A stretch of 30,340 nucleotides of DNA from a virus (lineage: Duplodnaviria > Heunggongvirae > Uroviricota > Caudoviricetes), in IMG/VR virus record IMGVR_UViG_2531839446_000015. The stretch is one strand, 5' to 3'. The position numbers and the translations under genes are program-made. Shown here one piece after another: positions 5,304 through 27,868 of the stretch. The notes beneath the pieces are model-generated. The model ran no database searches. It saw only the letters and a program-made list of their open reading frames with translations, and had not been told where the DNA came from. Each line of letters begins with the position of its first letter. Position 1 is the first letter of the stretch.

Positions 5304-7321
5304 CGCTGGCAATAAACGAACAATGCTATGCCGTTGATGCCTGGAGGCGGGAAACTTTCGCACCAGGCACACCGGCAGACGCGACTATCACAGAACGCCG
5401 CCTGTGGGCTGTAAACCCGCAGGATTATGAATGGCGATCCCGGTACCTGCATGAGATACCCGACTGGTTAGCCGGGTATTTTGGCCGTCGCTATGAAAAG
5501 CTTTTTTCTGGCCGTGACGGGCGTCGCCGTGCCAATACATTCCTGCGCAAAACAATCGGTGAGAATGTATTGCCACGTCTGCGCAAAGTGGCTGCGCGTT
5601 ACTCGCTGGCCGCTGATGCTGCTGATCTTCCTTTTGGTAAGTCGCTGGAGCGCTTGCCGTCACTAGACCGTCCTGATCTTAAAAAACTGGCTGGCCAGGT
5701 ATCTGGCTGGATTTCCCAGTCACTTTATGACTTCACCGAACAGTTTGATTCCGGCACTGACGACGCCAGAGAGCTGCATCGCCGCACTCTGGAATCTTAC
5801 CGCCATCTTTGTGCCTGTTGCCTGATGCTGAATAACCAGCCGCCGTACTGGACTGAACATGAGGCCAATGAAGGTCAACTGGAAATGCGTAAGGCGGAAT
5901 CCGGGATACTGCGCATGATGGCGCCGGAATGGTGGTACCTGCGTCTTAAACGTGCGCGTGATACGCAGCGCGAGCACATGGCCATTGCGGTGGGACAGGT
6001 GCAAAAAGCGGCCAGCGCTTATGTATCCCGCAAAACACTGGGTGAATGGATAGACCAGAAAAAGCGGAATCTGGAGTTCTTTAAAAAGTTTGATCTGCTG
6101 AATGATGAGGGGCTGCGCATTGCACTGGACAGCATGGTGCACCGCAGCGTTGCAAATCCGGCGATCCGTCGATGTGAACTAATGGTAAGAATGCGAGGGT
6201 TTGAAGATATGGCCAATGAAGAAGGGCTGGCCGGTGAGTTTTACACTATCACCGCGCCATCACGTTTCCATGCGGTTCACAGCAAAGGGGGCTTTGTATC
6301 GCAATGGGATGGAAGTACGCCGCAGGATACCCAGCGCTATTTATGCGGCGTATGGGCAAAAGCGCGTGCAGCGATCTCGCGTGCTGGTATCCATGTATTT
6401 GGGTTTCGGGTTGTTGAGCCTCACCATGACGGGACACCGCACTGGCATATGTTGCTTTTTATGCGTCCGCAGGACGTGGACACGGTACGCGATATTCTTT
6501 GTTATCACGCCAGAATTACCGATTCTGAAGAACTGCAATCTGAAAAGGCGCTGAAGGCGCGTTTTCATGTTGAAGCTATCGATCCCGCCAAAGGTTCGGC
6601 CACGGGCTACATCGCGAAATACATTTCAAAAAATATTGATGGTTTTGCGCTGGATGGTGAGCAGGACGAAGAAACCGGCGAAAACCTGCGTGATATGGCT
6701 AAGTCCGTTTCCGCGTGGGCTTCACGCTGGCGTATTCGCCAGTTTCAGCAGATTGGTGGTGCGCCGGTAACCGTCTGGCGTGAGCTGCGTCGGTTGCGGG
6801 ATCAGGTACTGACAGATCGCAGAATGGATGCGGTTCTGGCCGCTGCTGATGTCGGGGACTGGGCTGCATATACCCAGGCGCAGGGAGGTGCACTGGTTGC
6901 CCGCCGTGATCTGGTTGTTCGTCTGGCCTATGAAATTACGGAACAGGGCAACGAATACGCGGAGGACGTGCAGCGCGTACAGGGTGTTTATTCTCCTTTG
7001 ATTCCTGATTCAGAAGTTTGCACCCGTCTGGTTAAGTGGCAAAAGGTTGCGAAGTTGGCCGAAGCGCCAGCGGAGGCGGGTTTTTCTGGCGGCAACGCCG
7101 CCCCTTGGAGTTCTGTCAATAACTGTACGGAGGGGGGAACCCGCAGACGGTTAAAACTGGAATTACGCAGTCGGGGTTTTGAGGGTTCCGATGAAGAAAT
7201 AGCCATTCTCCTGCGGGGTAGTGGTTTGATATTTGGTCAGGGGGCACTGATTTACCGCAATGGGCGGTTGAAGGAAACACGAAACGAACCATTGCAGGAG
7301 CTTTGGCCGGGGTGGTTATAG
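5300..7321 (+). CDS. Rolling-circle replication initiator (P2 gpA / 186 A family endonuclease)
   Basis: 673 aa; HUH-type motif PHWHMLLF and active-site tyrosine region YIAKYISKN; position after the early operon. Confidence 0.85.
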   Translation: MTLAINEQCYAVDAWRRETFAPGTPADATITERRLWAVNPQDYEWRSRYLHEIPDWLAGYFGRRYEKLFSGRDGRRRANTFLRKTIGENVLPRLRKVAARYSLAADAADLPFGKSLERLPSLDRPDLKKLAGQVSGWISQSLYDFTEQFDSGTDDARELHRRTLESYRHLCACCLMLNNQPPYWTEHEANEGQLEMRKAESGILRMMAPEWWYLRLKRARDTQREHMAIAVGQVQKAASAYVSRKTLGEWIDQKKRNLEFFKKFDLLNDEGLRIALDSMVHRSVANPAIRRCELMVRMRGFEDMANEEGLAGEFYTITAPSRFHAVHSKGGFVSQWDGSTPQDTQRYLCGVWAKARAAISRAGIHVFGFRVVEPHHDGTPHWHMLLFMRPQDVDTVRDILCYHARITDSEELQSEKALKARFHVEAIDPAKGSATGYIAKYISKNIDGFALDGEQDEETGENLRDMAKSVSAWASRWRIRQFQQIGGAPVTVWRELRRLRDQVLTDRRMDAVLAAADVGDWAAYTQAQGGALVARRDLVVRLAYEITEQGNEYAEDVQRVQGVYSPLIPDSEVCTRLVKWQKVAKLAEAPAEAGFSGGNAAPWSSVNNCTEGGTRRRLKLELRSRGFEGSDEEIAILLRGSGLIFGQGALIYRNGRLKETRNEPLQELWPGWL

Positions 7322-12827: not shown

Positions 12828-13532
12828 ATGGCACTTTCCCCCGCGCAGCGTCACAGCCAGCGTATTGCAATGGAACAAAAGCTGAAGCGCAGCCAGGCAC
12901 TGGAAACCGCGGAAAGTATGCACCTGCTGATCAGGGCGCTGGAAACGGATGTGGAACACGTTCGAAGTCTGCCTACCATCGCCGATCGCGTCGAGTATAA
13001 ACGCGATGTGCTGTTGCCGCGCTGGGTTCCCACTGTGGAAGCCTATCTGGAGAGTGGCCAGGTGTATGCAAATCCGGTTTTCGCCTGGTGTGTTATCTGG
13101 CTGTTTGACGTGGGCGATCTGGATAAGGCGCTGGACTGGGCTGACATTGCTATCAGCCAGCAGCAGGCAACCCCGGATCGGTTACGCAGCAATTTTCCCA
13201 CTTTCGTGGCGGATACGATGCTGGCATGGGCGCAGGAAACCGCAGGGCGTGGGGAAAGTGTGGAGCCTTATTTCACCCGCACGTTTGAGCGGGTGGCAAA
13301 CACCTGGCGACTGCATGAGCAAGTGACGGCCAAATGGTTCAAGTTTGCTGGTCAGGAGTTGCTACGCAATGACGATGGCCAGAAAACGGCGGCGGGCGTG
13401 GATGATATTGAAACGCTGGAAAAGGCCGATCAGCTGCTGGCTATTGCAGAAAAACACTACTCAAAAATTGGCGTCAGAACGGCACGGCAGACGATTGCCG
13501 CTCGCATCCGAAAATTGACAACACAAGGATAA
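12828..13532 (+). CDS. Terminase small / endonuclease subunit (P2 gpM-like)
   Basis: 234 aa; GGAGGG Shine-Dalgarno; position after the capsid gene. Confidence 0.75.
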   Translation: MALSPAQRHSQRIAMEQKLKRSQALETAESMHLLIRALETDVEHVRSLPTIADRVEYKRDVLLPRWVPTVEAYLESGQVYANPVFAWCVIWLFDVGDLDKALDWADIAISQQQATPDRLRSNFPTFVADTMLAWAQETAGRGESVEPYFTRTFERVANTWRLHEQVTAKWFKFAGQELLRNDDGQKTAAGVDDIETLEKADQLLAIAEKHYSKIGVRTARQTIAARIRKLTTQG

Positions 13533-13538
13533 CAACAA

Positions 13539-13775
13539 ATGAAAGAAAGCCATTTACAAGGTGCACATACCCATACCGTGGGGGCACATAGCCATTCTCT
13601 GGGTGGTGCACATACCCATACCGTGGGGGCACATAGCCATTCTCTGGGTGGTGCACATACCCATACCGTGGGGGCACATAGCCATTCTCTGGGTGGTGCA
13701 CATACCCATACCGTGGGTGCACATAGCCATTCTCTGAGTGGTGCACATACGCACACTTTTAATACTGAGCAGTAA
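13539..13775 (+). CDS. His-rich HxH tandem-repeat small protein (78 aa)
   Basis: AAGGA 9 nt upstream of ATG 13539; protein is MKESHLQ + (GAHTHTVGAHSHSLG)x4 + GAHTHTFNTEQ. Sits between the small terminase and head-completion genes, where P2 has no gene. Confidence 0.45.
   Translation: MKESHLQGAHTHTVGAHSHSLGGAHTHTVGAHSHSLGGAHTHTVGAHSHSLGGAHTHTVGAHSHSLSGAHTHTFNTEQ
13561..13758. repeat. Tandem 45-bp direct repeat, about 4.4 copies
   Basis: Unit GTGCACATACCCATACCGTGGGGGCACATAGCCATTCTCTGGGTG starts at 13561, 13606, 13651 and 13696 (fourth copy with 2 substitutions), then a partial copy; the first three copies are identical. Confidence 0.95.
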
Positions 13776-13871
13776 ACGACTACCGCAAGCCAGGCGGACG
13801 CGGTGGAGGGCAGAACACCTTGTGTGTAACTGCGCCGTGGAAACCGGCCAGTCCGCCTTTTCGGGGGATTT

Positions 13872-14324
13872 ATGTTTAGCGGAAAGCCGCTGGATTATCA
13901 GGATGAACCGCTGACCAATAACGGATTCTGGCCAGACCTGAATCTGAAGGATTTTCAGGCGCAGCGGTCACTACCGCCAGATATTGACGCTGACACCATC
14001 AGCCAGGCGCTACTTGCGGCGGTGGCGGAGGTGAATGCGGAGCTGGAAAACGTGGAAGCCAGCTGGAAAGCGAAAGGCAACACGCTGGCGGCAGAGGTAC
14101 CAGGCGTAAAAATGGGCGGACTGAACAGCCTGTGCGCCCAGTATATGAAGGCCGTTTTTGCCAGGGCAAAAGCGGATCTGCTGGGGGAGTTTGCCACCAT
14201 CGGGCGGCGTGATACCCATCCGGGACAGGAAAGCATGGAAACCCGTGCGGGGTTACTGGCTGAAGCATCGGTGGTGATCCGCCGTATGAAAGGGCTGAAA
14301 CGGGCAACGGTGAAAAAAGTATGA
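13872..14324 (+). CDS. Head completion / stabilisation protein (P2 gpL-like)
   Basis: 150 aa; follows the packaging genes; stop overlaps the next start (ATGA). Confidence 0.7.
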   Translation: MFSGKPLDYQDEPLTNNGFWPDLNLKDFQAQRSLPPDIDADTISQALLAAVAEVNAELENVEASWKAKGNTLAAEVPGVKMGGLNSLCAQYMKAVFARAKADLLGEFATIGRRDTHPGQESMETRAGLLAEASVVIRRMKGLKRATVKKV

Positions 14325-26165: not shown

Positions 26166-27868
26166 TGATGAAACCAGTAAAACGCCTTTACCTTTCAACG
26201 GATGAAGTTCACCTGGTGGATGCCAGCCTGGTACTGGAGCTGAACAGCTGCGGCCGGGGCTTCATCACCGCAGAGACAACAACCGATTACACCGGAAAAC
26301 TGGTGCGGCTGGATGTAGGGTATACCGATCTGCTTTTGCGCTGGTTTACGGGGTACGTGGAGCGATCGCAGCCCGCAGAAAACGGTTTTCAGCGTCTGTT
26401 CATTCGTGAGCTGGTAGGTGTGTTTGAAAGGATGTGGCCGTGCTCATTTCAACATCCAACTTTACGCGAGGTTGCCAGCTGGCTGGAAGAAAACAGTGGT
26501 ATCTCGGTCAGTGTGCCTGATGCACAGTACAGCGATACCCCCATCCCACATTTTACCCATAACGGTACCGGCTATCAGTTGCTGAACAATCTGGGAAGGG
26601 CGTTCAGTATCCAGGATTACATCTGGTACCAGTTGCCTGATGGTTCGCTTTACGTCGGTGGCGCAGAAAAGTCACTGTTTGCCGGTCGTCCCGTAGAAAT
26701 CCCGTCAGAGTTCAGCCAGGGGGCTGCTGGTGGTAACTCTGTGACATTACCAGTGATCCAGACTATGCGGCCAGGGGTGGAGATGAACGGTGAACGCGTG
26801 ACTAAAGTTCACCTGACTAATGACACGATGGCGATCACATGGACGCCGAGAAACCGCGCAACGGGTAAACCTTTGCAGAAAACACCGGCGCAACGGCAGA
26901 TTGAAAGCCATTACCCGGAACTGGCATCCGGGCTTCATTTGCCAAAGACGGCCAGAGTCGTGGCGCATTCAGAGCCAGTAAAAAGCGGTAACTTTGCCGA
27001 TCCCTTCCGGCCACGTTACGCCGTGGACGTGCAACTGCTTGACGCAGACGGAAACCCGGACAATCAGACGCCTGTTTACTCAGCGGTGCCGCTGCCGGTA
27101 CCAATGGCCGGGAATGATTCAGGTATGTTTCAGTTCCCGCCTGAAGGGACGCTGGTTGAGGTCGCATTCACAGGAGGCAGACCGGATAAACCCTTTATCA
27201 GGCAGACGCTGCCGGATGGCACCAGTCTGCCGGACGTTAAACCCGGTGAGCAATTACAGCAGCAGCGGGAAGAAGTATCCCTGAGGGTGACTCAGGCGGG
27301 TGACTGGGTAAGGCAGACCGATCAGACCATCAGCGAAACATCAATGGTGCGAACCGTAAAAGCCGATACAGAACAGCGCGAACTGGTCAGCCGTGAAACC
27401 ACGGTGAAAGCCACGGATAAAACCACGGTACTGGGAACCGCCACATTGCTGGCCGGAGCCATCCAGCAGGTAAGCGCCGGTGATTATAGCCAGGCGGTGA
27501 AAGGTAACAGGCTGGCCAGTATTGAAGGAAACGAAGAAACGGACATAGCAGGACAGCAGTCCACTAAAGTGGGCGGTGCTGTAGCCGTGGAGGTTGGCGA
27601 AAGTCTGACAGAGAAGATTGCCGCACTGCGTAAATCAGTGGCTGCTGGCGGTCAGCAGGTCATGGGGGCAACTGTCCATATTGGCAGTGAGAGCATCAAC
27701 GCCCTGACCATGATGCTGGATACCATTGATTTACTGGCAGAGCTTGCGCAGCAATGCGCGAACCATTCGCACCCCACCGTTGGAACTCCAACCAATGCCG
27801 CCGCGTTCACACTGACGGCGACGAAAGCCGGGCAGACCCGGAGCAAATACCAGAATATAATTGCCTGA
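26165..27868 (+). CDS. Baseplate hub / central spike protein (gpV/gp5-like OB-fold domain)
   Basis: 567 aa; FQFPPEGTLVEVAFTGGRPDKPFI matches the gpV/gp5 OB-fold consensus (P2 gpV: VGEQVLILAVGGELDTAFVL); C-terminal ANHSHPTVG resembles the His-rich spike apex; about 300 aa of extra N-terminal sequence. Confidence 0.6.
   Translation: MMKPVKRLYLSTDEVHLVDASLVLELNSCGRGFITAETTTDYTGKLVRLDVGYTDLLLRWFTGYVERSQPAENGFQRLFIRELVGVFERMWPCSFQHPTLREVASWLEENSGISVSVPDAQYSDTPIPHFTHNGTGYQLLNNLGRAFSIQDYIWYQLPDGSLYVGGAEKSLFAGRPVEIPSEFSQGAAGGNSVTLPVIQTMRPGVEMNGERVTKVHLTNDTMAITWTPRNRATGKPLQKTPAQRQIESHYPELASGLHLPKTARVVAHSEPVKSGNFADPFRPRYAVDVQLLDADGNPDNQTPVYSAVPLPVPMAGNDSGMFQFPPEGTLVEVAFTGGRPDKPFIRQTLPDGTSLPDVKPGEQLQQQREEVSLRVTQAGDWVRQTDQTISETSMVRTVKADTEQRELVSRETTVKATDKTTVLGTATLLAGAIQQVSAGDYSQAVKGNRLASIEGNEETDIAGQQSTKVGGAVAVEVGESLTEKIAALRKSVAAGGQQVMGATVHIGSESINALTMMLDTIDLLAELAQQCANHSHPTVGTPTNAAAFTLTATKAGQTRSKYQNIIA

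Follow-up and report, generated by a model that had tools for sequence, protein, structure and literature searches.

A reading frame of 78 codons that consists almost entirely of HxH repeats was found between the terminase gene M and the head completion gene L of a Quadragintavirus prophage (Peduoviridae, ESSI2_ev129-like). It lies in a stretch of 30,340 nucleotides which was analysed as a whole and is called the window below. The product of this mini-gene is tentatively regarded, with a probability of about 45%, as a dispensable late accessory protein that would assemble by itself into a metal-bridged trimer, its length being set by the number of repeats. The M-L position is a polymorphic cassette slot, which is usually empty. 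A structured RNA element adjoins the mini-gene on its downstream side and separates it from gpL.

The mini-gene and its relation to tail fibres

The features of the M-L region, with positions in the window, were as follows:
12828-13532, + strand: gpM, terminase small subunit (PF05944, E 9.9e-40; phrog_74)
13525-13529, + strand: Shine-Dalgarno sequence AAGGA of the mini-gene, 9 nt 5' of the ATG and kept in all carriers
13539-13775, + strand: HxH-repeat mini-gene, 78 aa with 19 His and 9 HxH motifs, 7.9 kDa, pI about 7
13560-13750, + strand: 45-bp tandem array
13777-13867, + strand: conserved structured RNA element of 91 nt with a hairpin at 13792-13858; it adjoins the mini-gene and is not part of it
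13872-14324, + strand: gpL, head completion protein / head-tail adaptor Ad1 (PF05926, E 1.9e-38; phrog_71)

The translated ORF of 78 aa reads MKESHLQ-(GAHTHTVGAHSHSLG)x4-GAHTHTFNTEQ. The initial annotation had described an ORF of this length with a good Shine-Dalgarno sequence and a fourfold repeat between M and L, built from nearly identical 45-bp units of which the first three are the same. Re-reading of the ORF and a run of a tandem-repeat finder (TRF) gave the same picture. TRF reported a period of 45 with 4.2 copies, 98% matches and a score of 368; units 1-3 were identical, and unit 4 differed from them at two bases. A sub-period of 21/24 bp was present inside the 45-bp unit, and the latter is the step by which the copy number of the mini-gene changes. 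The Shine-Dalgarno sequence is embedded in the last codons of gpM (ACA CAA GGA TAA). The gpM stop codon TAA occupies positions 13530-13532, and the ATG of the mini-gene follows 6 nt on, at 13539. The mini-gene is therefore part of the late operon, and with its ribosome-binding site in the end of gpM it would be translated during lytic growth. A promoter-like site was not found upstream of it. For this reason, and because of the short distance to gpM, the mini-gene was rejected as a classical moron.

The mini-ORF is in frame with gpM (window 13530-13541) and is separated from it by just TAA CAA CAA, so that the product of read-through would be the small terminase subunit extended by the HxH array. 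Read-through of the gpM stop codon was rejected as unsupported; the other cassette found at this position is out of frame, and in locus L013 a TAG intervenes.

The 78-aa protein matched the phage tail fibre repeat family PF03335 in five stretches with 31.0 bits (E 1.8e-7), the gathering threshold of Pfam being 20 bits. Other alleles of 82 aa and 32 aa scored 40.5 and 23.5 bits, respectively. The best solved relative was the tip needle of T4 gp37 (PDB 2XGF), to which the mini-protein aligned with an E value of 0.025 over the HxH segment only; homology over the length of 2XGF, which would mark a receptor-binding tip of the gp37 type, was not found. The mini-protein has nine HxH motifs, of the kind that is characteristic of metal-bridged trimers, and they were aligned to gp37 motifs. 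Together with the Pfam score, this upholds the link to HxH metal sites that had been proposed earlier. No domain besides the HxH repeat was detected in the 78-aa protein with Pfam, PHROGs and NCBIfam, neither an N-terminal virion-attachment domain nor a distal receptor-binding domain as present in fibre proteins. PHROGs, NCBIfam and PADLOC contained no family for the mini-protein, and the anti-phage defence models of PADLOC gave no match at E values up to 1. The AlphaFold2 model of the monomer had a pLDDT of 55 and was not used for a fold search on that account.

A word-indexed homologue search with the 78-aa protein returned a single match, probably because the mini-protein is of low complexity; most alleles were absent from that collection. 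An exhaustive HMMER search yielded 59 matches, mostly long proteins by length. Several of the matching sequences that were read were spurious low-complexity translations, and only P0025, P0029, P0001, P0014 and P0016 were informative. P0014 (1026 aa) and P0016 (234 aa) are metagenomic proteins in which tens of HxH motifs succeed one another at period 7 without interruption, forming very long arrays, and which share a domain C-terminal to the array; neither received a Pfam assignment. The repeat period of the mini-protein is 7/8 residues, as in these long arrays, versus 9 residues in the gp37-type needle.

The PF03335 repeat is known from tail fibres that also possess attachment and receptor-binding domains. 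Heptads of the same type (G-x-H-x-H-S/T-hydrophobic) make up the mini-gene, but here the repeat is the whole protein of 32-82 aa, while the relatives of meaningful sequence obtained in this search were mostly long proteins. Histidine-rich metal-binding proteins of the Hpn type from Helicobacter, small, with about 25% His and plausibly binding divalent metals, also resemble the mini-protein. A relationship in sequence between the two was not found, however, and they are cellular nickel stores, whereas the mini-gene is a late gene of a phage.

An octahedral His6 site for Fe(II) is built from three symmetry-related HxH motifs in gp37, P2 gpV, phi92 gp138, R-pyocin fibres and the PA0616 spike (PMC6116203; PMC12609058). 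The HxH motifs of the mini-protein are shared with the T4 gp37 tip, in which each triad binds one Fe octahedrally (PMC6116203; PMC12609058), but the collar, the head domain, the chain reversal and the conserved C-terminal segment of that tip are all absent. The motif chemistry is likewise that of the P2 gpV and phi92 spikes and of the shafts of R-type pyocin fibres (PMC6116203). Each of these proteins folds into a large trimer that encloses one such site, whereas the mini-protein would have up to nine sites and nothing else.

The phage itself encodes HxH motifs in two further structural proteins:
23915-24265, + strand: HxH motifs of the tail fibre with T4 gp37-type tip, six in all, the last four of them spaced at period 9
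27764-27772, + strand: one HxH motif (NHSH) close to the C-terminal apex of the central spike (PF06715 and PF04717 match the spike)

Both had been placed correctly in the initial annotation, at about 24170-24290 and 27760-27790, respectively. Four of the six fibre motifs, at 24176-24265 of the fibre gene (22742-24346), follow each other with the 9-residue period, and the spike gene (26165-27868) contains one motif. The C-terminal 188 aa of the fibre matched 2XGF with an E value of 2.5e-55; as judged from this alignment the fibre of the phage, unlike the mini-protein, is a true homologue of the gp37 tip. The fibre is a chimera of a P2-type N-terminal domain (PF12571), a collar (PF07484) and the T4 gp37-type receptor-binding tip, and its variable head-domain segment differs among the window, ev129 and ev040. 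The only resemblance between the DNA of the mini-gene and the fibre gene was 77% identity over 47 nt (24197-24243). The mini-gene is therefore not a duplication of the fibre copy, as had already been supposed. A fibre-gene donor with DNA similarity was not found in 50,697 phage records by blastn in distant mode either, and a recent origin of the mini-gene as a fragment of a fibre gene was rejected on these two grounds.

Occupancy of the M-L slot and allele series

The mini-gene region was 98.6% identical to that of Escherichia phage ESSI2_ev129, whose copy of the gene is gp20 (YP_009877543.1, 98.7% identical to the window gene). Among 80 related IMG/VR contigs recovered through gpL, the slot was empty in 73, contained the HxH mini-gene in 4 and an unrelated 65-aa gene in 3. 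The M-L gap of the empty slots was only 94-98 nt, so that the premise of the initial annotation, according to which M is normally followed directly by L in P2-type phages, is right. In complete E. coli genomes five of 25 related prophages had the mini-gene (78, 61, 53, 33 and 32 aa). Three of the other prophages were fetched and had empty slots, and the rest had match spans fitting an empty slot; the unrelated 65-aa gene was not seen among the 25. In total, the mini-gene was present on 4 contigs in 2.9 million IMG/VR contigs, and the exact DNA pattern of its N-terminus gave no matches in the GTDB species representatives. As the mini-gene is rare among relatives, it is, on the strength of this distribution, dispensable and optional. 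The cassette junctions were exact and lay between the gpM stop codon and (A/C)GACTACCGC. The M-L slot shows the presence/absence polymorphism between conserved flanks that is typical of an accessory cassette.

In the sister phages ESSI2_ev040 and ev015 the exact slot is occupied by the unrelated 65-aa gene, which was named 'L33' by the depositors and belongs to phrog_8618. A gene of this kind was also seen in Citrobacter, and no relative of the 65-aa gene was detected in PDB or Pfam. The unrelated slot gene of 64-65 aa was located in the following loci:
L002:2208-2405 and L003:2208-2405
L047/L048, about 1210-1404, and L082, about 1205-1400

Three E. coli proteins (WP_203152244.1, WP_074441931.1 and WP_071989108.1) were identified as the mini-gene in the M-L slot. 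Its products are annotated as 'tail fiber protein', 'phage tail protein' or 'hypothetical', the first two being labels used in RefSeq. A study of stand-alone HxH ORFs, including the ev129 and E. coli copies, was not found in the literature; the mini-gene is already in the databases under generic names, but it is unstudied.

Alleles of at least ten lengths (32, 33, 47, 48, 53, 61, 68, 73, 78 and 82 aa) were collected from phage isolates, E. coli genomes, IMG/VR, metagenomes and two protein databases. All of them retained the Shine-Dalgarno sequence, start, frame and stop, the N-terminus MKESHLQG.HTH and the C-terminus HTHTFNTE(Q/H), and none had a frameshift or nonsense mutation. Frameshifts or the lack of a conserved start in homologous prophages, which the initial annotation had named as arguments against a gene, were thus not encountered. 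The comparison of copy numbers among related prophages that it had recommended also bore out the instability it had considered likely. Alleles of the window type with 33, 48 and 78 aa corresponded exactly to one, two and four units of the 45-bp repeat, and the other alleles were mosaics of the modules GAHTHSV, SAYNHSAG and GAHSHSLS. Units 1-3 of the window contained GGG where the ev129 units contained GGT. This indicates that homogenization or re-expansion of the repeat outpaces divergence of the flanks, and that repeat turnover is faster than point mutation.

The commonest allele in the protein collection was that of 32 aa, with 37 and 52 contigs for its two cluster members. It contains two true HxH motifs, and because of its frequency the 78-aa form is regarded as an expansion. 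About 4 synonymous and about 9 non-synonymous codon differences, counted by eye, separated the 33-aa from the 32-aa allele. Since the central differences are mostly non-synonymous, purifying selection is visible on the termini and the histidines only. Retention of the frame is weak evidence, as every period is a multiple of three.

The structured RNA downstream of the mini-gene

The elements of the RNA hairpin, which is long and irregular, were in the window:
13792-99/13851-58: stem P1, 8 bp
13800-04/13843-47: stem P2, 4-5 bp
13805-10: GGAGGG of the invariant internal loop, opposite GCCGTGGAA at 13834-42

The internal loop was invariant as GGAGG(G) with GCCGTGGA, and the apical stem was variable, yet covarying. 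On its 5' side the hairpin is preceded by GACTACCGCAAGCC, a conserved single-stranded segment. A T-run (13859-62) follows it, and relatives usually have a T-rich tail and then the Shine-Dalgarno sequence of gpL. The element occurred in 84 distinct variants at 143 loci. In an alignment of 29 sequences with 21 pairs 98% of the cells were paired, and 12 of the 21 pairs showed compensatory double changes. These values were reached by none of 500 shuffles, and slid controls gave only 30-44% pairing. An alignment of 35 sequences across both clades gave the hairpin again, with double changes in 11 of 18 pairs. With the covariance model the window gave a single match (98 bits) and phage P2 gave no match. 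There was no Rfam match, either at the gathering threshold or at E values up to 10, and a tRNA was ruled out by a tRNA check. The single-sequence fold of the intergenic region was unexceptional (z -0.83), and the structure was revealed by comparison alone. No study of an RNA element between M and L was found in the literature.

In phage P2 the M-L gap of 99 nt (L094:404-500, record 5903-5999) has a hairpin of its own, GGGCGG...CCGCCC, which is long and near-perfect and has a T-run behind it. It is unannotated in the record and was not matched by the covariance model. From its sequence, this hairpin is an apparently analogous architecture in a different genus, with homology not being detectable. 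In the element itself the single-stranded 5' CUACC (13779-13784) could pair with GGUGG (13802-13806), which overlaps stem P2 and the internal loop. At the loci of the L013 clade (L097-L123) CUACC/GGUGG is replaced by CUCCC/GGGGG, one compensatory change, and the other clades were without compensation. This pairing is a possible alternative structure. At the boundary between head and tail genes, the RNA element could act in partial termination, in processing or RNA stability, or as a regulatory site to which a protein binds.

At positions 13859-13862 the window reads TTTT, one T short of the TTTTT of all its close relatives. The fifth T brings a GTG further upstream (about 13822) into the reading frame of gpL, and in the ev129 record this GTG serves as the start of Ad1. 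With TTTT, only the ATG at 13872 can start gpL in the window, which suggests that this ATG is the true start.

Nature of the product and alternative explanations

Two independent HxH ORFs that stand alone were also present at other places in the Peduoviridae. P0025 is a 54-aa HxH ORF (Logan SRR33598369) of a phage whose gpL is 58% identical to that of the window. The order at this locus is gpM, RNA element, mini-gene and gpL, the mini-gene being on the opposite side of the RNA element. P0025 was absent from a relative with 99% identical gpL and from 62 other members of the clade. In Burkholderia phage FLC10 (Peduoviridae, Kisquattuordecimvirus) an HxH ORF (L012:3968-4237) separates the tube gene from gpE. 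It comprises 89 aa when read from the first ATG, of which no more than the last 57 codons are annotated in the record (gp25). The tube gene is labelled 'head closure' there, and the ORF sits between it and the gpE/E' chaperone genes. Both ORFs are, like the mini-gene, small, consist of HxH repeats only and lie within late structural operons, but termini, repeat periods and insertion points all differ from those of the mini-gene. Each was absent from its own close relatives. Further relatives of P0025 or the FLC10 ORF were not found by tblastn, the low-complexity filter of which may hide some. With the window included, small HxH-only ORFs therefore recur at three late-operon positions, always sporadically. 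As each of the three placements is directly followed by the next gene, such ORFs are arguably expressed units. Stand-alone HxH mini-proteins might even constitute an unrecognized accessory class of self-assembling, metal-threaded trimeric mini-needles with repeat-tuned length, which arose independently at at least three late-operon positions of the Peduoviridae and served as a virion add-on (e.g., a head/neck decoration) or as a metal binder late in infection; so broad a generalization is, however, rather unlikely.

For the mini-gene itself, the preferred reading is that of a genuine protein-coding, dispensable cassette in the late head operon of the prophage. Three chains would associate in parallel, and in each HxH triad six histidines would bind one Fe2+ (or Zn2+) octahedrally. 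The parallel, metal-bridged arrangement is proposed because HxH triads are arranged in this way in the solved fibres and spikes. The result would be a short, putatively homotrimeric, metal-threaded rod, which would accommodate up to nine metals in the 78-aa form and two or three in the forms of 32-33 aa. Its length would follow the number of repeat units, which changes through slippage or unequal recombination, 45 or 21/24 bp at a time. The cassette moves from one related phage to another, apparently through recombination in its conserved flanks, that is, the 3' end of gpM and the downstream RNA element. Our best guess for the product is a non-essential metal-binding accessory protein that is either virion-associated or soluble.

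A serious rival, although less probable, is a functionless remnant. A fibre-like HxH piece would have been captured in a permissive slot and then altered by slippage, and it might be translated without benefit to the phage. The sporadic and rare distribution, with most relatives having an empty slot, is in agreement with a remnant, as are the high diversity of alleles with mostly non-synonymous central differences, repeat units of 21, 24 and 45 bp that preserve the frame automatically, and the lack of an attachment or other domain in the mini-protein. However, none of the 50,697 phage records revealed DNA similarity to a fibre gene. Shine-Dalgarno sequence, start and both termini were conserved in all alleles and disrupted in none, and the Peduoviridae have comparable stand-alone ORFs at three different positions.

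An assembly factor had been among the candidate functions in the initial annotation. Such a helper or metallochaperone would deliver iron to the HxH fibre tip and spike apex of the phage or nucleate their trimerization. Six HxH motifs are indeed present in the gp37-type fibre of the phage and one in its spike, and a role of buried ions as reference points in folding, by which the three chains would be brought into register, has been proposed (PMC6116203). Nevertheless, ESSI2_ev040 is without the mini-gene and has the same six-HxH, gp37-type fibre tip and a dedicated fibre-assembly gene. The mini-gene is therefore not needed for fibre assembly, and it is also missing from the 73 relatives with empty slots. 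This function is now disfavoured and considered improbable.

Scarcely probable, too, is the view that the array is an untranslated tandem repeat of the M-L spacer, open by chance. Several of its frames are indeed open, and on both strands it is overlapped by other ORFs, 58-99 aa long. Only the HxH frame, however, has an ATG with a Shine-Dalgarno sequence and a stop just outside the array, and this frame matches the curated protein repeat family PF03335. Divergent alleles swap codons (Ser TCT to AGC/AGT; GGT to GGC), but the pattern G-x-H-x-H-S/T-hydrophobic is kept.

A His-codon-rich leader, the translation of which would modulate termination or gpL translation through the hairpin in the style of the his operon attenuator, would accord with 19 His codons (18 of them CAT) in 78, with the covarying hairpin and T-run that follow, with an end of the mini-ORF 1 nt before the conserved single-stranded 5' segment and with a stop codon of any preceding ORF always about 18 nt 5' of stem P1, but it is very unlikely since most relatives (the 73 of 80 that are free of a cassette) have the hairpin without the ORF and the HxH ORF lies 3' of the hairpin in L013; moreover, the hairpin also stands behind the unrelated 65-aa cassette, the FLC10 ORF is in a different context, the His codons alternate with others so that no two are adjacent, the residues follow the PF03335 pattern, and ORF-dependent alternative hairpins of the his type were not found.

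What is new in the present case is the HxH repeat of tail fibres as a free-standing mini-protein of variable length in a cassette slot. In these P2-type phages cassettes are exchanged at the M-L junction, and the covarying RNA hairpin may regulate the transition from head to tail genes in the whole prophage clade. The allele series, with one, two and four units plus the mosaics, is a clean natural case of repeat-driven evolution of the length of a phage protein. If the peptide alone forms the metal-threaded trimer, it would be the minimal natural HxH needle. It would then also provide a tractable model of how buried iron sites register three chains in fibre folding, and possibly a protein nanorod of programmable length.
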